From the IMG/VR virus record IMGVR_UViG_3300043410_001242: 64,000 nucleotides of DNA. The stretch is one strand, 5' to 3'. Under the pieces are notes generated by a model, which worked only from the letters and a program-made list of their open reading frames with translations, made no database searches and was not told the DNA's origin. Below are positions 3,339 to 13,231 of this stretch, piece by piece. The number at the start of each line of letters is the position of its first letter. The first letter of the stretch is position 1. The stretch is from a virus. The position numbers and the translations under genes are program-made.

Positions 3339-3724
3339 TGCCTGATTTATTCAGAGAAATTATACCATCAATCTTACAGAACAAAAAGAATGTATTTGAA
3401 AATGGTATTTACTCAGATTACAATCCTTTTATTGTAAACCGGGCTTTATCCTATCATCTCGATTGTCTTCCATATGTTGCTGAATTGTCAATGTTATCAC
3501 ACCTTGATAAAGATATGCAATATCAGTACCTTATAAATACAATAAGGTCTTATAAACGCCCATTCCATAAATGGCAAAAAGTAGAGACTGTGGAAGATTT
3601 AGAATGTGTTAAAACCTATTTTGGTTACTCCAATCAAAAAGCAAAGGAAGCATTACGCATTCTCAACAATGAACAAATCGCTGAGATAAGAAAAAAAACG
3701 GACAAAGGCGGAGTGAAGAAGTAA
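3338..3724 (+). CDS. 62: clamp loader small subunit gp62
   Basis: YNPFIVNRALS, YFGYSNQKAKEAL; between 44 and regA. Confidence 0.9.
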   Translation: MPDLFREIIPSILQNKKNVFENGIYSDYNPFIVNRALSYHLDCLPYVAELSMLSHLDKDMQYQYLINTIRSYKRPFHKWQKVETVEDLECVKTYFGYSNQKAKEALRILNNEQIAEIRKKTDKGGVKK

Positions 3725-4128
3725 TGATTAACATTTCAAATTTAGTTGAAGTACGATTAATTGAGGAGGATGATTTTCTAAAAGTCAGAGAAACACTGAC
3801 TCGTATTGGTGTGGCCTCAAAAAAAGACAAGATACTGTATCAGTCTTGTCATATATTGCACAAGCAAGGACACTACTATATCGTACATTTTAAAGAATTA
3901 TTTTCGTTAGATGGTAAACCTACTGACATTTCTGAAAATGATTTGGCTCGTAGAAATGCAATTGCTAAATTATTGGAAGATTGGGGTCTTGTTGAAATTG
4001 TAAATAAGAAACAGATTGAGACTCCAGAACCTATTTTCTTGTCGCAGATCAAGATCATATCACACAAAGAAAAAGGTGAATGGGAATTAGTTCCGAAATA
4101 CAACATCGGAAAGAAAAAAGTCGTATAA
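3724..4128 (+). CDS. regA: translational repressor RegA
   Basis: DDFLKVRETLTRIGVAS, LYQSCHILHKQG, YIVHFKELF. Confidence 0.97.
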   Translation: MINISNLVEVRLIEEDDFLKVRETLTRIGVASKKDKILYQSCHILHKQGHYYIVHFKELFSLDGKPTDISENDLARRNAIAKLLEDWGLVEIVNKKQIETPEPIFLSQIKIISHKEKGEWELVPKYNIGKKKVV

Positions 4129-5508: not shown

Positions 5509-5930
5509 AACAGAAATTTCTGGATGCATACATGGATGTTGCCCATCGTTTTGCACAGTTATCTACCGCAAATCGATTACAGGTTGGAGCAATCATTGTG
5601 AAAGATGATAGAATTATTTCTATCGGATACAATGGTATGCCTGCCGGCTGGACAAATGTTTGTGAACACTTTGTTGACAATGGACAACAGTCCGGATTTG
5701 TAACTAAACCTGAAGTCATTCATGCGGAAGCAAATGCAATCGCAAAGCTTGCCAAGTCACCAGAAAGTGGTGTAGGATCCACAATGTTTCTTACACATGC
5801 ACCTTGTATAGATTGTGCAAAACAAATCTACACTGCTGGCATAGAGAAGGTCTTTTATAAAGAAGATTATAGAAGTTGCCAAGGTCGAGATTTTCTGTTA
5901 CAATGTGGAATTGAGGTTGTAAAAGTATGA
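5505..5930 (+). CDS. cd: dCMP deaminase
   Basis: VGAIIVK, GYNG, HAEANA, PCIDC zinc motifs. Confidence 0.9.
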   Translation: MKQKFLDAYMDVAHRFAQLSTANRLQVGAIIVKDDRIISIGYNGMPAGWTNVCEHFVDNGQQSGFVTKPEVIHAEANAIAKLAKSPESGVGSTMFLTHAPCIDCAKQIYTAGIEKVFYKEDYRSCQGRDFLLQCGIEVVKV

Positions 5931-6058
5931 CTCAATGGCATGGTGGAAAAGGTTCCAGACCAAGAAATGTGGACAAAAAGAAGTTCGATGACAACTGGGA
6001 TCGAATTTTTGGTAAAAAAGATGAAAAAAAAGTGTTGCCAGATGAAAAAAAAAACTGA
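5927..6058 (+). CDS. small basic phage protein (43 aa)
   Basis: ATGA overlap with cd; GGKGSRPR...FDDNWDRIFG. Confidence 0.55.
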   Translation: MTQWHGGKGSRPRNVDKKKFDDNWDRIFGKKDEKKVLPDEKKN

Positions 6059-6064
6059 TACAAT
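6035..6064 (+). promoter_or_regulatory. sigma70-type promoter upstream of tRNA leader
   Basis: TTGCCA-18-TACAAT with TG extension. Confidence 0.55.
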
Positions 6065-6086
6065 ACCTAAAAATTGAAAAAACTTG

Positions 6087-6094
6087 TATAAATA
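6087..6094 (+). promoter_or_regulatory. T4-type late promoter
   Basis: TATAAATA, 5 nt before ATG 6100. Confidence 0.7.
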
Positions 6095-6099
6095 AAAAC

Positions 6100-6228
6100 A
6101 TGACTACTAAAAATTTATTTAAACTCTTAACCATATCGATGCCCGTGTCAAGCACATGGACTCCAGGTTATCGCCTGAATTCCATTCAATGCGCGGAACA
6201 TGATAGAATCGGGGTTTGTGACAGTTAA
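6100..6228 (+). CDS. putative attenuator leader peptide (42 aa, all 20 amino acids)
   Basis: MTTKNLFKLLTISMPVSSTWTPGYRLNSIQCAEHDRIGVCDS*; 36 distinct codons; 3' end overlaps antiterminator strand. Confidence 0.7.
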   Translation: MTTKNLFKLLTISMPVSSTWTPGYRLNSIQCAEHDRIGVCDS

Positions 6229-6255
6229 AAAGTAGAATTACCAAATAACAATCAC

Positions 6256-6287
6256 AAAACCCGAACCCTAAAAAGTTCGGGTTTTTT
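6256..6287 (+). terminator. attenuator terminator in front of tRNA array
   Basis: AAAACCCGAAC-cctaaaaa-GTTCGGGTTTT plus T run; left arm alternatively pairs with 6209-6221. Confidence 0.85.
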
Positions 6288-6295
6288 GTTATTAA

Positions 6296-6308
6296 GCTCT
6301 TTAAAAAT
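6296..6308 (+). promoter_or_regulatory. rrn-type boxA antitermination element
   Basis: GCTCTTTAAAAAT versus rrn boxA TGCTCTTTAACA; immediately before first tRNA. Confidence 0.65.
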
Positions 6309-6326
6309 ATAGAACGTTTGTATAGT

Positions 6327-6401
6327 GGTGACTGTGGTGTAATGGTAGCACCTCTCTCTGTGAAAGAGAAAGCACGGGATCGATACCCGTCAGTCACCCC
6401 A
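6327..6401 (+). tRNA. tRNA-His(GTG)
   Basis: cloverleaf, G-1, TCTCT-ct GTG aa-AGAGA, encoded CCA. Confidence 0.9.
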
Positions 6402-6402
6402 A

Positions 6403-6478
6403 GCCGGTTAAGCTAATCTGGTGAAAGCGCTTGTCTGAAGAACAAGAGAGCGTGGATCAAAACCACGAACCGGCACCA
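6403..6478 (+). tRNA. tRNA-Phe(GAA)
   Basis: CTTGT-ct GAA ga-ACAAG, CCA. Confidence 0.9.
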
Positions 6479-6483
6479 ATTTT

Positions 6484-6557
6484 GGGTCTTTGGTGAAATG
6501 GAATCACACCCTCCTTACAAGTGGGAGTCAGCGGATCGATACCGTTAAGACCTACCA
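6484..6557 (+). tRNA. tRNA-Val(TAC)
   Basis: cloverleaf, ct TAC aa loop, CCA. Confidence 0.88.
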
Positions 6558-6565
6558 AACAAAAT

Positions 6566-6642
6566 GCCCTTGTAGTGAAATGGAATTATCACGCATCGCT
6601 ACGGACGATGTATTGTGGGTTTGAATCCTGCCGAGGGTGCCA
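6566..6642 (+). tRNA. tRNA-Arg(ACG)
   Basis: CATCG-ct ACG ga-CGATG, CCA. Confidence 0.9.
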
Positions 6643-6648
6643 ATTTAT

Positions 6649-6737
6649 GGAGGGTTATGTAACCTGGGATGTTACGTCTGGTTTGAACCCAGAGCGAGCC
6701 GAAAGGCCAGGAGTTCGATTCTGCCATCCCTCCGCCA
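6649..6737 (+). tRNA. tRNA-Ser(TGA)
   Basis: TCTGG-tt TGA ac-CCAGA, long V-arm, G73, CCA. Confidence 0.85.
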
Positions 6738-6862
6738 ATTATAGGAGAAAAGAAATGGGGAGTACGAGTATTTAAATTATCAATATGTTGTTGATGATTA
6801 TACATTATACACATATACGGATTTTATGAGTGACTTCATCATATTTTTTTCTTTTAGTTTTT

Positions 6863-6949
6863 AGAAGATGATATCAGATGGTTCTGATACTTGCTTGGAA
6901 AGCAATGTGGTCCGAAAGGGCTGGGGCTCGATTCCTCCGTCTTCTGCCA
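6863..6949 (+). tRNA. tRNA-Ser(GGA)
   Basis: TTGC-tt GGA aa-GCAA, long V-arm, GCCA end. Confidence 0.8.
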
Positions 6950-6958
6950 ATTCAAAAC

Positions 6959-7046
6959 GGAAGATTAATCAGTTGGGAACTGGAACGGTTTGCTAAACCA
7001 GTTGAACCTGCAAGGGTTTGGGGATCGAGACCTCAGTCTTCCGCCA
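6959..7046 (+). tRNA. tRNA-Ser(GCT)
   Basis: GGT-tt GCT aa-ACC, long V-arm, GCCA end. Confidence 0.8.
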
Positions 7047-7052
7047 ATTTAT

Positions 7053-7129
7053 GGTAGTGTGTCCGAATGGGAAGGAAGCTGATTGCAAATCAGTTATGTT
7101 TGCGGGTTCGAATCCTGTCACTACCTCCA
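7053..7129 (+). tRNA. tRNA-Cys(GCA)
   Basis: GCTGA-tt GCA aa-TCAGT, U73, CCA. Confidence 0.9.
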
Positions 7130-7141
7130 AACAAAAAGTGC

Positions 7142-7170
7142 TTGACAAGGAAGACACTCTAGTGTATAAT
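7142..7170 (+). promoter_or_regulatory. internal sigma70 promoter in tRNA array
   Basis: TTGACA-17-TATAAT. Confidence 0.8.
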
Positions 7171-7197
7171 ATCTTCCATCAAGTGAGAGAAAGTTAT

Positions 7198-7274
7198 GGA
7201 CCTGTCGTCTACTTGGTTTAGGATACAAGATTTTCACTCTTGTGAACGGAGTTCGAATCTCCGCAGGTCTACCA
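7198..7274 (+). tRNA. tRNA-Glu(TTC)
   Basis: CAAGA-tt TTC ac-TCTTG, CCA. Confidence 0.9.
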
Positions 7275-7280
7275 AACAAT

Positions 7281-7366
7281 GCGTAAGCGCCGGAGTGGGA
7301 GAGCCGGGCCAGACTGTAAATCTGTTGTCTCTGACTGAATAGGTTCGAATCCTATATTACGCACCA
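7281..7366 (+). tRNA. tRNA-Tyr(GTA)
   Basis: CAGA-ct GTA aa-TCTG, long V-arm, CCA. Confidence 0.9.
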
Positions 7367-7371
7367 ATTTT

Positions 7372-7446
7372 GAGAGTGAAGCTTTAATGGTGAAGCATCT
7401 GGCTCTTAACCAGACGAAGAGGGATCGTTACCTTCCACTCTCACCA
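7372..7446 (+). tRNA. tRNA-Lys(CTT)
   Basis: TCTGG-ct CTT aa-CCAGA, CCA. Confidence 0.9.
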
Positions 7447-7449
7447 AAT

Positions 7450-7572
7450 GTGTTGCAACTAATGTCGGTGCTGTCGTTCTCCCGACTTAAAATAACCGTT
7501 AATACCAGAATGAATATCAACTAGGTTCGAAACTAGAAGAGACACGGACTGGAGTAGGTAACAACGACACCA
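7450..7572 (+). ncRNA. structured non-tRNA RNA candidate with T-loop and CCA end
   Basis: GTGTTG/CGACAC terminal pairing, GTCGG/CCGAC hairpin, CTAG-GTTCGAAA-CTAG, ends CCA, no anticodon arm. Confidence 0.5.
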
Positions 7573-7579
7573 ATTTTTT

Positions 7580-7653
7580 GGGGGTGTAATTCAATGGTAG
7601 AATAACTGGCTTTTAACCAGTCCACCGTGGTTCGATTCCACGTACCCCTACCA
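7580..7653 (+). tRNA. tRNA-Lys(TTT)
   Basis: ACTGG-ct TTT aa-CCAGT, CCA. Confidence 0.92.
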
Positions 7654-7658
7654 ATATT

Positions 7659-7732
7659 GCCCGATTAGTTCAAAGGTAGAACACGCAACTGATAATTGCG
7701 AAACGTTGGATCGATACCATCATTGGGCACCA
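7659..7732 (+). tRNA. tRNA-Ile(GAT)
   Basis: CGCAA-ct GAT aa-TTGCG, CCA. Confidence 0.92.
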
Positions 7733-7737
7733 AATTT

Positions 7738-7831
7738 GTCTCTATAGTGTAACGGTAGCACTCCGGCTTTATACTCCGGCATGGCCCCAGATTAGGGCGT
7801 AGTGTAGGTTCGAATCCTACTAGAGACACCA
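7738..7831 (+). tRNA. tRNA-Ile(TAT) with long variable arm
   Basis: CCGGc-tt TAT ac-tCCGG, ~24-nt variable region, A73, CCA. Confidence 0.75.
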
Positions 7832-7836
7832 ATTGA

Positions 7837-7910
7837 AGAGGATTAGGCTAGTGGTAAACCTTGGGATTCATATTCCTATATCATCAGTTCGATTCTGATA
7901 TCCTCTACCA
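7837..7910 (+). tRNA. tRNA-CAT (Met elongator or Ile2)
   Basis: TGGGA-tt CAT at-TCCTA, CCA. Confidence 0.85.
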
Positions 7911-7916
7911 AACAAT

Positions 7917-7992
7917 GGGTATGTAGTAATCTGGTGATTACGCTTGTCTGTCGAACAAGTTTAGGAGGGTTCGATCCCCTTCATACCCGCCA
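7917..7992 (+). tRNA. tRNA-Asp(GTC)
   Basis: CTTGT-ct GTC ga-ACAAG, GCCA. Confidence 0.9.
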
Positions 7993-7998
7993 ATTTAA

Positions 7999-8076
7999 TG
8001 TGCCTTAGCGATCACGGTGATTGCATCTCGCTGTTAACGAGAATGAAGCTCAGTTCGATTCTGAGAGGCACAGCCA
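7999..8076 (+). tRNA. tRNA-Asn(GTT)
   Basis: TCTCG-ct GTT aa-CGAGA, GCCA. Confidence 0.9.
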
Positions 8077-8082
8077 ATTTAT

Positions 8083-8158
8083 CTCTGTAAAGTGTTACTT
8101 GGCAGCATACTCCGTTTGGGGCGGAGTGGTGAAGGTTCAAATCCTTCTACGGAGACCA
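8083..8158 (+). tRNA. tRNA-Pro(TGG)
   Basis: CTCCG-tt TGG gg-CGGAG, CCA. Confidence 0.9.
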
Positions 8159-8163
8159 AATAT

Positions 8164-8238
8164 GGGGACAGTAATGGGTTACGGAGTTGCCTTGCAAGCT
8201 ACTTGTCTAGAAGGGTTCGATTCCCTCGGTCTCCACCA
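8164..8238 (+). tRNA. atypical tRNA-Ala(TGC) with shrunken D arm
   Basis: G3:U70, ct TGC aa loop, GGGTTCGATTCCC, ACCA; D arm GTAA-tggg-TTAC. Confidence 0.75.
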
Positions 8239-8243
8239 ATTAT

Positions 8244-8320
8244 GATCTTATCGTCTAGAAGGTTAAGGACACTGGTCTCTCAAACCGGAAAATTGGGTTC
8301 GATCCCCAATAAGATCACCA
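8244..8320 (+). tRNA. tRNA-Glu(CTC)
   Basis: CTGGT-ct CTC aa-ACCGG, CCA. Confidence 0.9.
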
Positions 8321-8326
8321 AATGAT

Positions 8327-8403
8327 GCGGATATAGCCCAATTGGCAGAGGCGGTAGGTTCAAACCCTACTCAGTGTCAGTTCAAATCTGACTATCCGTA
8401 CCA
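8327..8403 (+). tRNA. tRNA-Leu(CAA), short variable loop
   Basis: GTAGG-tt CAA ac-CCTAC, A73, CCA. Confidence 0.85.
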
Positions 8404-8462
8404 ACTTGACATTTGTTGAACACTGTGTTATTATAAATATAATAAAAAGATGAGAGGGTTCA

Positions 8463-9044
8463 ATGAATAAAAAAGACGAAATAATTAGATTGTTAAATGA
8501 AGGTAAATCTGTTTCTGAAATAGTTTCTTTAGTAAAATGTTCTAAAGGTACTGTTTCATACTATAGAAAAGAGCTTGGTTTGATTTATGAAAATCCAAGA
8601 AAACCAATAGATTCATTTCATTGGAGTGTCATACAACAAAATTATGATGAAGGTTGTTTATCTGTTTCTCAAATTTGTAAAAAGTATGGAATTTCAAGAA
8701 ACAATTTATTAGAAGCTAAAGAAAAAGGTTTATTTAATATAATACCTCAATCATACAATGATGACGAAGTATTTGTGGAAAATTCTGATTATTCTAGACA
8801 TTCATTAAAGAAAAGAATAATTAAACAGAATTTAATGGAATATAAATGTCAATGTTGTGGTATTGGTAATATGTGGAATAATATTGAATTGTCGTTACAA
8901 TTAGACCACATAAATGGAATAAACAACGACAATAGAATAGAAAATTTAAGATTCTTATGTCCTAATTGTCATTCACAACAAGACACATATGCGGCAAAGA
9001 ATCGGAAAAATAACCCGAACAGAGTTGCAAAAAAGTATGGTTAA
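8463..9044 (+). CDS. HTH + HNH homing endonuclease
   Basis: N-terminal HTH, CQCC, LQLDHING..NDNR.ENLRFLCPNCH; own promoters (TTGACA 8406, TATAAATA 8432). Confidence 0.88.
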   Translation: MNKKDEIIRLLNEGKSVSEIVSLVKCSKGTVSYYRKELGLIYENPRKPIDSFHWSVIQQNYDEGCLSVSQICKKYGISRNNLLEAKEKGLFNIIPQSYNDDEVFVENSDYSRHSLKKRIIKQNLMEYKCQCCGIGNMWNNIELSLQLDHINGINNDNRIENLRFLCPNCHSQQDTYAAKNRKNNPNRVAKKYG

Positions 9045-9045
9045 T

Positions 9046-9119
9046 ATCTCGTTAGTGTAGCAGTAACACGCTAGTCTCCAAAACTAGAATCAGGGGCGCG
9101 AAACCTCTACGGGATGCCA
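9046..9119 (+). tRNA. tRNA-Trp(CCA)
   Basis: CTAGT-ct CCA aa-ACTAG, GCCA; divergent T-loop. Confidence 0.85.
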
Positions 9120-9141
9120 ATTTAAAAAAGGAAATAATATA

Positions 9142-9318
9142 ATGAAAGTAACTGAATCAGAAGATTGTACCGATTGGCCAGAACGATTGGAAAAGATTGT
9201 TGAAGATTTAAATAATAAGAATCCAGACCTAAACCTTATCAGTATGCAACCTATGACTGCTCCAACTGGAAAGATTTTTAAGTTACGATTGAGAGAAGCT
9301 AAGAATAATGAAATATAA
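9142..9318 (+). CDS. 58-aa protein with gp23 capsid-like motif
   Basis: SD AAGGA; LISMQPMTAPTGKIFKLR. Confidence 0.55.
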   Translation: MKVTESEDCTDWPERLEKIVEDLNNKNPDLNLISMQPMTAPTGKIFKLRLREAKNNEI

Positions 9319-9634
9319 AGCGATTGACATTGTGAATTGGTCTTGTTCCAAACAATCTGATAACAGATGGATACCAGCAAGACCTTTGCCTTATTATGGT
9401 TGGTGGGGCGTAAAGACCAGAATTAAATGTGCGTGGTTTGTTCTCATTGGAAAATATGACGCATTAGATTGGGAGGATCAATGAATAAATTAAGTTTTTC
9501 GGAATGGAAAGAGTTGACTGATTTCAGTAAGGAACCACCAATGCACGAAGAAGATATTCTATTAGAATATGAAGAATATCTGAATAACTTAGAAAAAGTT
9601 GAGGAAGAATAGATTTTACTAAAAAGGTGTTAAC

Positions 9635-10108
9635 ATGATATTGAGGGAAATAAACTTAGATGAAGTAAGAGAATTCATTAATGCACAAAGTCCAGAAACC
9701 TGTGTCTATCTTGGTTCAGACTCAGAAAGACATAAGATTGATGGAAGATGGTATGCAGATTATACGACTTGTGTTATTGTGCATATTGATGGAGAACATG
9801 GTTGTAAAGTATTTGGTGAAGTTAAGAGAGAACTTGACTATGACCAGAAGAAGAACAAACCTTCCATGCGCCTAATGAATGAAGTCTATAATGTATCAGC
9901 GCTCTTCAGTGAACTAAAAGATGTTCTTGAAGATAGATATGTTGAAGTTCATCTTGACCTTAATCCAGATGTTCGTTATGGTTCTTCTTGTGTTATTCAA
10001 CAAGCAATAGGATACATAAGAGGAACTTGTAACCTAACACCAATGGTTAAACCAAACAGTTGGGCTGCATCTCATGCTGCTGACCGTTTGAAGGATTTGC
10101 TCCCATAG
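9635..10108 (+). CDS. RNase H-like YkuK (DUF458) family protein
   Basis: YLGSDS, RLMNEV, EVHLDLN, VKPNSWAASHAAD. Confidence 0.85.
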   Translation: MILREINLDEVREFINAQSPETCVYLGSDSERHKIDGRWYADYTTCVIVHIDGEHGCKVFGEVKRELDYDQKKNKPSMRLMNEVYNVSALFSELKDVLEDRYVEVHLDLNPDVRYGSSCVIQQAIGYIRGTCNLTPMVKPNSWAASHAADRLKDLLP

Positions 10109-10173
10109 TTTGAACGGTAAAACGATTCCTTGGTAAGGAATAAACGATGGTTCGACTCCATCTAGGAGCTCCA
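10099..10173 (+). tRNA. tRNA-Thr(GGT)
   Basis: ATTCC-tt GGT aa-GGAAT, CCA; overlaps YkuK stop codon. Confidence 0.88.
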
Positions 10174-10179
10174 ATTAAT

Positions 10180-10257
10180 GCCTCCGTACACCAATCTGGT
10201 AGAGTGAGCGGTCTTAGAAGCCGTAAAGTGTCAGTTCGAATCTGACCGGGGGTACCA
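10180..10257 (+). tRNA. tRNA-Leu(TAG), short variable loop
   Basis: GCGGT-ct TAG aa-GCCGT, CCA. Confidence 0.88.
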
Positions 10258-10266
10258 AATTAATGG

Positions 10267-10295
10267 TTGACAAAGTGTGGAATGTTTGATATAAT
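10267..10295 (+). promoter_or_regulatory. sigma70 promoter
   Basis: TTGACA-17-TATAAT with TG. Confidence 0.8.
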
Positions 10296-10314
10296 GTTGC
10301 ACACAATGAATGAA

Positions 10315-10398
10315 GCGGGTGTGGTGAAATGGTAGACGCAAGGGACTTAAAATCCCTCGGAGAAATCCGTGTCGGTTCGAGTCCGACCACCCGTACCA
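10315..10398 (+). tRNA. tRNA-Leu(TAA)
   Basis: canonical class II, AGGGA-ct TAA aa-TCCCT. Confidence 0.95.
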
Positions 10399-10402
10399 AA
10401 TC

Positions 10403-10478
10403 GGGCCTCTAGCATAACGGTTAATGCAGCAAACTCATAATTTGTTGACTCTCGGTTCGAATCCGAGGGGGCCCACCA
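10403..10478 (+). tRNA. tRNA-CAT (probably Ile2)
   Basis: GGGCCTCTAGC 5' end, ct CAT aa loop, CCA. Confidence 0.88.
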
Positions 10479-10498
10479 ATTAAAAAAAAGGAGATAGT

Positions 10499-10677
10499 AT
10501 GAACTGTATTTTGAATTCTTTGATGATTATTATTGTTTTTGCTTTTTTTGCGGTGGCAGGAATTTTTGGATTAGAAATGTATGAACAACACAAAGCAGTA
10601 GAAGCTGGATTACAGCAATGTGTTGTTGCAATTAATTCAAACACATACGAAGCAGTATGGCAGAAAGAATGTAAGTA
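10499..10677 (+). CDS. small membrane-anchored protein
   Basis: SD AGGAG; hydrophobic N-terminus, GLQQC..WQKECK. Confidence 0.5.
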
Positions 10678-10685
10678 ACAGTTTT

Positions 10686-10784
10686 TTTGGACGGTTGTGT
10701 CCTGCCACTACTCGCAGCGACATGATCGGTAGGACTGCCATCCTGCGAAAAGTCAATCTGGCAGGATTGATGAATGTATCCAAA
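10686..10784 (+). ncRNA. rod-shaped structured RNA candidate
   Basis: nested pairings TTTGGA/TCCAAA, TCCTGCCA/TGGCAGGA, TCGCAG/CTGCGA; GC-rich, non-coding. Confidence 0.5.
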
Positions 10785-10794
10785 TTTTTTTCAT

Positions 10795-10870
10795 GCCGCC
10801 ATAGTCTAATGGAGAGGGCAACGCTCTTCTAAAGCGTAAGGTAGGGGTTCGAATCCTCTTGGCGGCGCCA
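10795..10870 (+). tRNA. tRNA-Arg(TCT)
   Basis: ACGCT-ct TCT aa-AGCGT, CCA. Confidence 0.92.
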
Positions 10871-10879
10871 AATTAATGG

Positions 10880-10908
10880 TTGCCAAAATGGCATATATAA
10901 AGTATAAT
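10880..10908 (+). promoter_or_regulatory. sigma70 promoter
   Basis: TTGCCA-17-TATAAT. Confidence 0.7.
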
Positions 10909-10919
10909 GTATGAACAAT

Positions 10920-10993
10920 TTCGGGATCGTCTAATGGTAGGACATGTGACTTTGACTCACAGAATCGAGGTTCGAGCCCTTGTCCCGAAACCA
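10920..10993 (+). tRNA. tRNA-Gln(TTG)
   Basis: TGTGA-ct TTG ac-TCACA, CCA. Confidence 0.92.
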
Positions 10994-11001
10994 GTTTAAA
11001 T

Positions 11002-11075
11002 GCGGGTATAGTTTAAAGGTAAAACAGAACCTTGCCAAGGTTCAGTTGATAGTTCAATTCTATCTACCCGCTCCA
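11002..11075 (+). tRNA. tRNA-Gly(GCC)
   Basis: GAACC-tt GCC aa-GGTTC, TCCA. Confidence 0.92.
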
Positions 11076-11083
11076 ATTTAAAT

Positions 11084-11159
11084 GCGGATATAACTCAATT
11101 GGTAGAGTGTCAGCCTTCCAAGCTGTACGTTGCAGGTTCGAGTCCTGTTATCCGCTCCA
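11084..11159 (+). tRNA. tRNA-Gly(TCC)
   Basis: CAGC-ct TCC aa-GCTG, TCCA. Confidence 0.95.
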
Positions 11160-11180
11160 ATTTAAGGTAAGGAGTATATT

Positions 11181-11342
11181 ATGTCTGGTAGTGTAGTAAA
11201 GCGATGCGGTTGTAAAGGCACACCTTCACACAGTTCTGATTATCAGGACCAAAAGTATGGTGATGGTATGAGAGTGATGTGCATGGATCAGAAGAAGGTT
11301 GAAGCAGTTTGTACTATTTGTGGAAAAACTCATAAGGTGTAA
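11181..11342 (+). CDS. small zinc-ribbon-like protein (53 aa)
   Basis: SD AAGGAG; CGC...YQDQKYG.GMRV...CTICG. Confidence 0.6.
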   Translation: MSGSVVKRCGCKGTPSHSSDYQDQKYGDGMRVMCMDQKKVEAVCTICGKTHKV

Positions 11343-11344
11343 TT

Positions 11345-11554
11345 ATGAAAGGTATCAAACATAAACATCCAATGCAAACTCGTCATGGTAGAACTCGTTA
11401 TAAGGCATATTCACATATTGAATTGATGCTGATGTATAAGAAAGAGTCTACTCCCAAAAAGAAACATAAAATCATTGAAGAAATTAATAGAAAACTAAAG
11501 AATCTTGGTGTTGTGTTTCGAGTTAGTAAATCAAATCCAGAATTAAATATATAA
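11345..11554 (+). CDS. small basic hypothetical protein
   Basis: ORF directly after previous gene. Confidence 0.5.
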   Translation: MKGIKHKHPMQTRHGRTRYKAYSHIELMLMYKKESTPKKKHKIIEEINRKLKNLGVVFRVSKSNPELNI

Positions 11555-11563
11555 AGATTAACT

Positions 11564-11638
11564 GCCCCTCAAGCATAAGTGGCGATGCACTTGACTTGTA
11601 ATCATGAGAAATCGGTTCGATTCCGGTGAGGGGCTCCA
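11564..11638 (+). tRNA. tRNA-Thr(TGT)
   Basis: ct TGT aa loop, GCCCCTC/GAGGGGC acceptor, CCA. Confidence 0.9.
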
Positions 11639-11694
11639 AATGCAGACTGATAGGAAAGACTATCATCTTTTTGTTAACAATTAAAGGAGAAACT

Positions 11695-12051
11695 ATGACT
11701 TTTATTAAATCATTTATTGCGGCAATTGCTTTGTTCGGCACTTTCAGTGTGGCTAATGCTACTGTATCACCTGCCGGTGGTAACATCGTTACTGTTGGTT
11801 GTGCTGCTGATGCGCCTACCGGAGCAAATGTATATTCTGTAAATGCTGCAATTCTTAACGGTAGTGTAACTGATTCTTTGACTCTACCAACTGGAGTAGC
11901 CGCAGGGAATGCATGTGGAGTCGCACTAAATGCTCTTAGTGCAGTAACTTGTGCAACCGGTAAGACTTGGGTTCTTGTGAATGAACCAACAAATATTACC
12001 ATTGACAATACTGGTTACTCACTACAACAGTTTGTATTCCGTTGTCAGTAA
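11695..12051 (+). CDS. secreted/periplasmic protein, 4 Cys
   Basis: SD AAGGAG; signal peptide MTFIKSFIAAIALFGTFSVANA. Confidence 0.7.
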   Translation: MTFIKSFIAAIALFGTFSVANATVSPAGGNIVTVGCAADAPTGANVYSVNAAILNGSVTDSLTLPTGVAAGNACGVALNALSAVTCATGKTWVLVNEPTNITIDNTGYSLQQFVFRCQ

Positions 12052-12203
12052 TATAAACTAAATGTGATATAAAATCCTCCTTGATATCGAGTATAATATA
12101 TCACGAAACATCGAAAACCAGAAGTGATGTAAAATAAAACACTGGCGTGAACTAGAGCGGTTATAACGATATGATAACGCTGGATTTCGTAACCAGTAAC
12201 TTT

Positions 12204-12281
12204 CCGAGTGTAGTTCAGTTTGGTTAGAATACGTGCTTTGGGAGCATGGGGTCGGGGGTTCGAATCCCTCCACTCGGACCA
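12204..12281 (+). tRNA. tRNA-Pro(TGG), second copy
   Basis: CGTGC-tt TGG ga-GCATG, CCA. Confidence 0.93.
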
Positions 12282-12287
12282 ATTTCT

Positions 12288-12363
12288 TGGTAGGTGCGTG
12301 ATAGGTAATACGGGTTGACTGTTAATCAATTTCATGTGGGTTCGAATCCCACCCTACCAGCCA
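12288..12363 (+). tRNA. tRNA-Asn(GTT), second copy
   Basis: GTTGA-ct GTT aa-TCAAT, GCCA. Confidence 0.85.
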
Positions 12364-12380
12364 ATTTAAGTGAGATATAT

Positions 12381-12629
12381 ATGAGTTATAGACCAACAGG
12401 TAAAAATGTACTGATTGAGAGAATTGCTGCTTCTAAGCAAACTGAATCAGGAATCATTCTAAAATCATCAGAAGAACCTGATCGTGCAAAAGTTATTGCA
12501 ATTGGTCCAGAAGTTGATGAAGTTAGTATTGATGAGATTGCTGTAGTTAATTGGAATACTGCAACAAAGATTGAAGATGAATTATATATTATAAATATTG
12601 ATAACGTTGTTTTGGTTATCGAAGACTAG
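12381..12629 (+). CDS. GroES-like co-chaperonin
   Basis: RPTGKNVLIE, mobile loop TESGIIL, AKVIAIGP. Confidence 0.85.
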   Translation: MSYRPTGKNVLIERIAASKQTESGIILKSSEEPDRAKVIAIGPEVDEVSIDEIAVVNWNTATKIEDELYIINIDNVVLVIED

Positions 12630-12634
12630 TTAAT

Positions 12635-12710
12635 TGCGGGTTAGATTTCTGGTGAAATCACCGGTCTCATAAGCCGGTCCAGAGTAGTTCGATTCTGCTA
12701 CCCGCTACCA
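12635..12710 (+). tRNA. tRNA-Met(CAT), initiator-like
   Basis: ct CAT aa loop, unpaired 1:72 (T:T), CCA. Confidence 0.82.
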
Positions 12711-12713
12711 ATT

Positions 12714-12797
12714 AACGTCCGGACATGCCTCTCATAGAAGCACACACAGTCATCTGGAATTGACCAGTGAACACCAAAGACGTTTGGTACTACGGAA
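12714..12797 (+). ncRNA. multi-branch structured RNA candidate
   Basis: three hairpins closed by TCCG/CGGA; AACGTC/GACGTT alternative pairing. Confidence 0.45.
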
Positions 12798-12814
12798 TTT
12801 TTATTATAAACACG

Positions 12815-12846
12815 GCCCACCCATGTTCGCATCGGGTGGGTTTTTT
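12815..12846 (+). terminator. intrinsic terminator closing tRNA array
   Basis: CCCACCC-ATG-ttcg-CAT-c-GGGTGGG then T6. Confidence 0.85.
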
Positions 12847-12860
12847 ATGCCTAATTACTC

Positions 12861-12889
12861 TTGACAGATTTAATACTTTGTGATATAAT
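12861..12889 (+). promoter_or_regulatory. sigma70 promoter for gp43 operon
   Basis: TTGACA-17-TATAAT with TG. Confidence 0.8.
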
Positions 12890-12919
12890 TGTTTTGTTTA
12901 ACTGCGGAGGAAAATAGTA

Positions 12920-13231
12920 ATGGAAATTATTGCAATTAAGTTAGTCACCGGTGAAGAAGTTCTTGGTGAAGTTGTAGACACAGACCGTAATGGATACTGG
13001 AGGTTGAGAAACCCTGTAGGAATCTCGATTGTTCGTGGTCCTGATGGTGCACCTAATGTAGGATTCTCTCCCTTCCCACTACATGCAGAACAAAAGTCTG
13101 GATTTGAAATTGACATTGCATACAGCAATGTAGTATACTCCTATACTCCAGCTGAAGATTTCAGGTCAAATTATGATCAAATCTTCGGTACAGGTATTGT
13201 TGTTCCCAATAAAAAGATTATCACCGGTTAA
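12920..13231 (+). CDS. phage Sm-like domain protein
   Basis: IKLVTGEEVLGE...NPV...GFSPF...Y.QIFG.GIVVP; usual position before gp43. Confidence 0.7.
   Translation: MEIIAIKLVTGEEVLGEVVDTDRNGYWRLRNPVGISIVRGPDGAPNVGFSPFPLHAEQKSGFEIDIAYSNVVYSYTPAEDFRSNYDQIFGTGIVVPNKKIITG

Follow-up and report, generated by a model that had tools for sequence, protein, structure and literature searches.

The attenuators of amino-acid operons include the trpL, hisL, leuL, pheL and thrL leaders as well as the multivalent ilv leader. They combine a short leader open reading frame (ORF) with mutually exclusive RNA helices, 1:2, 2:3 and 3:4, and an intrinsic terminator; a ribosome that finishes the leader masks region 2, resulting in termination, whereas a ribosome that stalls further upstream leads to read-through (see also PMC1183508, PMC3082878). 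This architecture is shared by a locus in a 64,000-nucleotide (nt) stretch of viral DNA (IMG/VR record IMGVR_UViG_3300043410_001242; the whole stretch is hereafter called the window), in which a 42-codon ORF containing all 20 amino acids, an antiterminator and an intrinsic terminator precede an array of tRNA genes. An earlier, sequence-only reading had ascribed to the locus the geometry of the trp, his and thr attenuators; the architecture is indeed the same, but the run of regulatory codons that defines these attenuators is absent. Classical leaders repeat the codons of 1–3 amino acids and control the biosynthetic enzymes for them, whereas the phage leader, a viral and probably leaderless one, has no runs, includes all or nearly all 20 amino acids and would control tRNA genes. 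Neither a run nor an excess of regulatory codons was found in the phage leaders, except for an excess of cognate residues in one lineage with small arrays (L006/L033). Moreover, in the untranslated state the fold of the phage leader predicts read-through in most members, whereas the trp leader terminates.

The sequence itself contains a short ORF with plausible initiation signals, a terminator before the target, an overlapping antiterminator that covaries, and a stop codon placed as in attenuators. We consider it probable that the module is a ribosome-mediated leader-peptide transcription attenuator which precedes the tRNA array and audits the decoding of nearly every amino acid, so that the phage would probably make tRNAs when the decoding of almost any amino acid slows. 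The geometry, conservation, covariation, amino-acid completeness and exclusive link to tRNA arrays on which this reading draws were computed in this analysis.

Other regulatory systems share parts of the proposed logic. T-box riboswitches bind tRNA directly, each for one tRNA, and need no ORF. As the phage module would, they ask whether tRNA is charged and available, and they act by antitermination before genes of translation supply. The Rfam covariance model found no T-box in the window (positions 5800–13000, E up to 1), and no Rfam family scored above threshold for the leader region; the match to Thr_leader (RF00506; 25.3 bits versus a gathering threshold of 55) covered the terminator only. 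By analogy, the phage leader is in its logic closest to two upstream ORFs (uORFs) that respond to translation stress in general, toiL upstream of topAI-yjhQ (PMC12121999) and the uORF of the whiB7 leader (PMC10274678), in which stalls at different positions and from different causes switch on downstream genes. Whereas the phage module would work through an intrinsic terminator, toiL affects Rho-dependent termination and translation; toiL and whiB7 control a toxin-antitoxin pair or a resistance regulon rather than tRNAs, and amino-acid completeness has been reported for neither. Also close by the same analogy are the mycobacterial leaderless polycysteine short ORFs, which are operon attenuators (bioRxiv 10.1101/834739). 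In both cases the sensing element would be a leaderless short ORF that begins with AUG, but the mycobacterial ORFs carry runs of Cys, that is, of one amino acid, are cellular and lack the 2:3 / 3:4 terminator switch. Control of tRNA genes by a leader peptide, whether in phages or in cells, did not turn up in a full-text literature search.

Leader ORFs preceding phage tRNA arrays

The leader ORF of the window uses 36 different codons, among them 5 of the 6 Ser codons, all 3 Ile codons, both Cys codons and both Asp codons; a recount of ORF length, amino acids and codons agrees with the sequence-only reading. That reading had also proposed computing the probability of such a composition: under the phage's own codon usage, it is 0.011 for 20 amino acids in 42 codons and 3e-5 for at least 36 different codons. 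None of the 11,732 42-codon windows of the phage's genes reaches 36 codons, and nucleotide shuffles of the leader ORF give P = 0.017 for amino acids and P = 0.002 for codons. Rare codons account for 24% of the leader versus 8% in genes. No Pfam family was found for the ORF. One striking ORF chosen by eye proves little, and relatives were therefore sought.

With the neighboring dCMP deaminase as a query, 80 loci were retrieved from IMG/VR, many of which show the same layout directly before the first tRNA gene, and an exact-match scan yielded the relative L081, which is 83% identical to the window. A second scan, blind to context and using only the two antiterminator strands as a pattern, returned 23 further instances. 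A rule-based pipeline, which required a terminator, upstream of it a strand able to pair with its 5' side, and an ORF with its end at that strand, gave 34 distinct leaders in approximately 20 lineages in IMG/VR. In each of these relatives, the strand is G-rich. A tRNA gene on the same strand lies within 400 nt of the terminator in all 43 instances and in the window, mostly within 125 nt; for the instances from the context-blind scan, the count is 23/23. A peptide profile search of protein databases matched only 10–11 short proteins, all unnamed, and two extra pattern scans for lineages with small arrays brought no new members. Among GenBank phages, no close relative of the window was found by megablast and blastn with the leader region and the leaders of two relatives, which returned only tRNA matches or nothing; these searches thus yielded no cultured relative.

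Two observations on the terminators of the relatives were made alongside. L137 carries a second, identical terminator, which was rejected as belonging to a second leader because it follows an ordinary gene. L003, L048 and L053 have no leader; in these loci a homologous terminator lies 19–25 nt after the stop of an ordinary gene of 170–185 residues with a zinc-protease-like HExxH motif, and the tRNAs follow directly after the terminator.

Leader ORFs are 21–42 codons long across lineages, with 45 codons in one database member, and their length is constant within lineages. In all members, the stop codon lies between -4 and +13 nt from the 3' end of region 2 and 21–32 nt before the terminator. 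As judged from shuffled upstream sequence, such an ORF would occur by chance in approximately 10% of cases per lineage, and the product over 20 lineages is 7e-21. The leader peptides, by contrast, show approximately 25% column identity and no invariant column; 40 codon columns change the amino acid versus 16 with synonymous changes only, and the third-position excess is weak (26:21:37, p = 0.09). Thus, the frame has been kept and the peptide has not, which fits a leader rather than a working protein.

The same data bear on the possibility that the locus is simply an ordinary gene for a small phage protein, complete with promoter and terminator, in which case the complementarity would be a by-product and the tRNAs would come from other promoters. 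We consider this highly improbable. The succession of promoter, ORF and terminator does resemble a self-contained gene, a strong promoter follows the terminator in half of the lineages, and a few members are called hypothetical proteins in databases. However, the peptide is hardly conserved, as described above, the two strands of the 2:3 helix covary also in members with altered C-terminal residues, and eight lineages lack a promoter between the terminator and the boxA-like element or tRNA gene. Furthermore, there is no known reason for a working 31-residue peptide to need all 20 amino acids.

Alternative RNA helices and the tRNA genes downstream

Regions 2 and 3 of the window are complementary at 12 of 13 positions, and region 3 overlaps the terminator, as the sequence-only reading had noted; recomputation gave the same result. 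The 2:3 helix (-19.5 kcal/mol) is more stable than the terminator (-15.8 kcal/mol). When a ribosome was simulated as a mask on the window RNA, a calculation of geometry only, a mask at the stop left the terminator alone, and a mid-ORF mask left the 2:3 helix. Across the family, the 2:3 duplex ranges from -13 to -21 kcal/mol versus a median of -5.8 kcal/mol for 134 other terminators from the same contigs. In nascent RNA extending up to region 3, the 2:3 helix is the minimum free energy (MFE) state in 27/34 leaders, preceded by a weak 1:2 helix before region 3 is reached; in full-length RNA, the terminator plus the 1:2 helix is the MFE state in 31/34. The 1:2 helix of the window derives from the fold of nascent RNA 6100–6225 and from the MFE structure of 6070–6295.

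Covariation was counted on a MAFFT alignment (A2) that had not been fitted to structure. In the antiterminator, 78% of the alignment cells are paired, versus 35–54% in slid registers, and compensatory changes occur in 7 of the 11 pairs; the covariation score of 0.227, versus 0.129 +/- 0.015, was reached by 0/500 shuffles. Lineages that are divergent in sequence (L006/L033, L004, L017/26/43 and L027) retain the 2:3 pairing, and their C-terminal residues differ too. The terminator is homologous throughout the family, with a similar loop, a covarying inner stem and, in every member, a stem of 8–11 bp followed by a U-run; it is 89% paired across the family when counted one register off the window's own. 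RNAalifold, run on the MAFFT alignment, gave only 4 pairs, because the terminator registers differ between members, and the named structures were counted instead. A hairpin at the place equivalent to the hairpin domain within the window ORF is carried by relatives, with an A-U to G-C exchange between L017 and L069; judging from the modeled fold, this domain is possibly a pause or timer element.

These helices could be real and the ORF incidental if the region were a non-coding RNA switch that binds, for example, a tRNA, a protein or a metabolite. The whole region folds well (z = -4.2), the helices covary, the codon usage of the leaders is unlike that of phage genes, and most members lack a Shine-Dalgarno site, all of which would suit such a switch. 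Nevertheless, we judge it improbable: all 20 lineages keep an open frame, each at the chance rate given above, the stop codon always falls at the border of region 2, and upstream of region 2 both sequence and length are too variable for a shared ligand pocket. The absence of an Rfam match, T-box included, points the same way, as do the start codons, with ATG at the predicted transcription start and GTG starts paired with Shine-Dalgarno sites.

The evidence on the start codons is as follows. The T4 late promoter box spans -13 to -6 (PMC1524935), and TATAAATA in the window ends 5 nt before the ATG; the predicted +1 is therefore the A of the AUG. The box stands at the same 5-nt spacing in L081, L027, L040 and L021/30 and, with one mismatch, in L006 (5 lineages, window included). 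In six other lineages, the -10 hexamer of a sigma-70 promoter ends 6 nt before the ATG, giving the same predicted +1, so that for no fewer than 11 lineages one promoter class or the other predicts a transcript whose first nucleotide is the A of the start codon. The GTG-start leaders, which cannot be leaderless, carry GGAG or AGGA Shine-Dalgarno sites 5–8 nt upstream. That two promoter classes should both place an AUG at the 5' end of the RNA has no easy explanation if the ORF is not translated. Judging from the promoter spacing alone, the window leader is probably leaderless late in infection. The sigma-70-like promoter further upstream in the window overlaps the end of an upstream 43-codon ORF; it is kept in L081, and promoters matching the consensus at 11–12 of 12 positions occur at the equivalent place in L027, L017/26/43 and L069/90. 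The gp55 gene was not found within the 64 kb window.

Downstream of the terminator, tRNA-His begins 41 nt past the U-run, in line with the short distance claimed by the sequence-only reading. A boxA-like 12-mer with up to 3 mismatches is present between terminator and tRNAs in 24/33 relatives (among them L081, L027, L096, L137 and L134); background windows have one in 8% of cases. In L081, it is identical to the rrn-type boxA, GCTCTTTAACAA (12/12). As in rrn-type boxA/Nus antitermination, the 12-mer stands at the head of a long untranslated transcript, which suggests Nus-factor antitermination of the tRNA array; unlike the rrn-type system, the phage element is separate from, and downstream of, the switch. 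No promoter was found between the terminator and the boxA-like element or tRNA in 8 lineages, the window included, and the first tRNA block in these lineages would therefore be made only by read-through.

The window derives from a T4-like phage with 36% G+C, whose genes in the window encode RegA, Hsp20, dCMP deaminase, a gp43-type DNA polymerase (approximately 50% identity to the cyanomyovirus enzymes), UvsX and a gp41-type helicase. ARAGORN called 31 tRNA genes for 19 amino acids in the array. A tRNA-Ala(UGC) with G3:U70 at 8163–8238, not called by ARAGORN, was recognized from a weak Rfam match to the clan of transfer-messenger RNA (tmRNA) and tRNA and from alignment to the tRNA-Ala of L081. 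As it provides the twentieth amino acid, the array serves all 20, as had been claimed. A further tRNA-like gene not called by ARAGORN, with a long variable arm, occupies 6863–6945, where tRNA-Ser and tRNA-Cys are separated by a 315-nt gap. It reads like Ser(GGA), is supported by Rfam models and the L081 alignment, and reaches 34.4 bits with the Rfam model of tRNA-Sec. The coordinates of the principal features are collected in Table 1.

Table 1. Features of the leader region and tRNA array in the window (positions of the 64,000-nt stretch).
Feature	Position	Strand	Basis or remark
Sigma-70-like promoter (TTGCCA, 18 nt, TACAAT; TG before the -10)	6035..6064	+	Consensus scan, 10/12
Putative T4-type late promoter box TATAAATA	6087..6094	+	Ends exactly 5 nt before the leader ATG
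Leader ORF, ATG start, 42 codons + TAA	6100..6228	+	Translation of sequence; homologues in 34 distinct relatives
Region 1	6120..6127	+	Weak pairing with 6211–6218 (8 pairs, 3 G-U) before region 3 is transcribed
Stable hairpin domain within the ORF	6134..6205	+	RNA folding; one compensatory pair change versus L081
Region 2, antiterminator 5' strand, core GGGGTTTGTG	6209..6221	+	Encodes the last leader residues, Gly-Val-Cys
Region 3, antiterminator 3' strand, core CACAAAACCC	6252..6264	+	Shares 6256–6264 with the 5' arm of the terminator
Intrinsic terminator (11-bp stem 6256–6266/6275–6285, 8-nt loop, six U)	6256..6287	+	-15.8 kcal/mol alone
boxA-like element GCTCTTTAAAAA	6296..6307	+	11/12 match to GCTCTTTAACAA; 10 nt past the terminator stem, 8 nt past the U-run
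tRNA array	6328..12710	+	ARAGORN, Rfam, alignment to relatives
First tRNA block, His through Cys	6328–7129	+	Ends before the first internal promoter at 7142

Several other elements lie in or near the array. A second Ser-like tRNA candidate at approximately 6954–7047, also not called by ARAGORN, ends in GCCA. The array is interrupted by an ORF at 8463–9044 resembling homing endonucleases with helix-turn-helix and HNH motifs, and by an RNaseH-like ORF at 9635–10108. Further TATAAATA boxes are located at 8432–8439, just upstream of the HNH ORF, and at 12590–12597, upstream of the last tRNA-Met; from their sequence, both are possible late promoters that would bypass the attenuator. A gene for a RegA-type translational repressor (3724–4128) lies 2 kb upstream of the leader.

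Amino-acid content of the leaders and what they would sense

All 20 amino acids are present in 15 of the 34 leaders, some of only 31–35 residues, and 19 are present in nine more. Among 665 other ORFs of 30–42 codons from the same contigs, used as controls, 20 amino acids are reached by 0–0.9% and at least 19 by 0.4–6%; windows of real genes reach 20 in 0.02–0.6% of cases. Because conserved in-frame RNA motifs supply rare residues, we used a conservative null in which M, W, Y, C, G, V and R were granted free and the least significant member represented each lineage; even so, the Fisher combined p is 9e-7 over 20 lineages. Nucleotide shuffles that keep composition give P = 0.001–0.02 per leader, and members added later from protein databases again contain 19–20 amino acids.

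The sequence-only reading had gone further and seen in the locus a sensor of translation failure at any codon. Amino-acid completeness extends over the family, but the codon part of that claim did not stand: for the peptides as they are, the codons are as diverse as synonymous codons drawn uniformly would be (mean z = 0.35), and selection for all codons was rejected. Tuning at the anticodon level was rejected as well, with 26 of the 29 phage anticodons touched by the window leader (P ~0.3). The same reading had pointed to related phages as the place to look for short ORFs that conserve codon diversity but not peptide sequence, together with a covarying antiterminator and terminator. The short ORFs, the variable peptide and the covarying antiterminator are there, but what the relatives keep is completeness in amino acids, not diversity in codons. 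The core of the reading, a leader-peptide attenuator that gates a tRNA array, gains support from the conservation of the ORF, its stop, the overlap and the tRNAs in approximately 20 lineages and from the covarying antiterminator.

The amino acids of the leaders were also compared with those of the tRNAs. Arrays for 19–20 amino acids are paired with 20-amino-acid leaders in the window, L093 and L164. In the small-array lineage L006/L033, which has 6 and 4 tRNAs, the leaders of 22 and 21 codons contain 12 and 11 amino acids, respectively, with an excess of those amino acids that the tRNAs of the same phage carry (P = 1e-4 and 7e-3); L033 has neither Trp in its leader nor a tRNA-Trp. Strict matching of leader and tRNA set as a rule was rejected on the basis of L137 and L021, described below, and holds as a trend only.

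Several observations weigh against an audit of nearly every amino acid, and some of them would favor another explanation, namely that the attenuator is real but gauges only how close the ribosome is to the polymerase (ribosome supply, initiation or infection phase), with completeness a side effect of RNA-motif constraints and relaxed selection on the peptide. The in-frame conserved motifs dictate part of the rare-residue content, supplying Trp, Tyr, Arg/His, Cys, Gly and Val. By a simple footprint, 2–3 amino acids are confined to the last 8–9 codons, where a stall would mask the antiterminator and should favor termination; residues found only in this non-signaling tail are Val in 24/34 leaders, Trp in 19/34, often Gly and, in the window, His and Asp, so that the earlier claim of sensing at almost any codon does not extend to the end of the leader. 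Completeness is not strict, as drops from 20 to 19 amino acids and from 19 to 17 have occurred recently, and a pairwise test did not detect that substitutions between close relatives preserve it (p = 0.48). The lack of tuning to codons or anticodons also counts in favor of this explanation. We nonetheless regard it as unlikely: completeness remains extreme with seven residues granted, the composition-keeping shuffles give low P values for each leader, and the small-array leaders over-represent the amino acids that the tRNAs of their own phages carry.

Further points on the opposing side concern the tRNA repertoire and expression. The complete 168-kb phage behind L137 has a tRNA-His and a leader without His, and L021 has tRNA-Gln and tRNA-Gly and a leader without Gln or Gly. 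No Shine-Dalgarno site was found for the window leader, the translation of which would rest on leaderless or A/U-rich initiation, and TATAAATA is not enriched across the window (7 found versus 7.2 expected). Approximately half of the lineages have a near-consensus sigma-70 promoter downstream of the terminator but ahead of the tRNAs; it stands approximately 26 nt past the terminator and before the boxA-like element or tRNA-Gln (L005, L016, L039, L051, L060, L084, L093, L095 and others). The window has promoter-like sites within the array at 7142, 8406, 10267 and 10880, each matching the consensus at 11–12 of 12 positions, in agreement with the bypass foreseen by the sequence-only reading. Because of such intervening or internal promoters (in the window, from 7142 on), the attenuator would govern part of the tRNA output. 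Arrays with an intervening promoter appear from their sequence to have two inputs, a constitutive (early) one and an attenuated one, and the attenuated share of the output is plausibly its late-phase part.

Proposed working and its meaning for phage tRNA arrays

We infer that the ORF is translated and how the ribosome footprint would act, as well as the direction in which the favored attenuator responds and its physiological trigger, and propose the following course. Transcription would begin either at the putative late promoter, where +1 falls on the AUG, or at the sigma-70-like promoter further upstream, and the transcript would carry the 42-codon ORF with all amino acids. If the lead ribosome keeps pace, it would reach the stop and cover region 2; region 3 would then be free, the terminator would form, and RNA polymerase would stop before the boxA-like element and tRNA-His. 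Without a ribosome, or with one held up at a codon for almost any amino acid, region 2 would pair with region 3, the terminator would not form, and the polymerase would continue past the boxA-like site and transcribe the tRNAs. The net effect would be an increase in tRNA output when decoding falters and a decrease when it is healthy. Possible triggers are decay of host tRNAs, defenses that cleave tRNAs, starvation and a mismatch in codon usage.

A broader proposal, which we put forward as a serious possibility that falls somewhat short of probable, is that phage tRNA arrays are under feedback control by an audit of decoding, with the repertoire of the leader tracking that of the tRNAs and a shortage of any aminoacyl-tRNA switching on replacement tRNAs. 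The shortage could come from host tRNA decay, from anticodon nucleases or from other defenses that target tRNA. The interpretation of the sequence-only reading is largely supported, with the incomplete fit of the footprint model as a weak point; the module would use a known mechanism, with a sensing design for which we know of no precedent.

It has long been asked why phages carry tRNA arrays and, to our knowledge, next to nothing has been described of how these arrays are regulated. The arrays have been linked to escape from tRNA-cleaving defenses and to the loss of host tRNAs (PMC10264068, PMC11464382, PMC11555353). With the present locus, the question of how an array is regulated becomes testable with a synthetic construct of approximately 300 nt, and the sequence signature can be used to find such controls in other phages. 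For engineering, the module would also provide a small, naturally occurring sensor of translational health. If the proposed reading is true, the leader would be the first attenuator to sense decoding failure in general, not the shortage of one amino acid, and the first case of leader-peptide control of tRNA genes.

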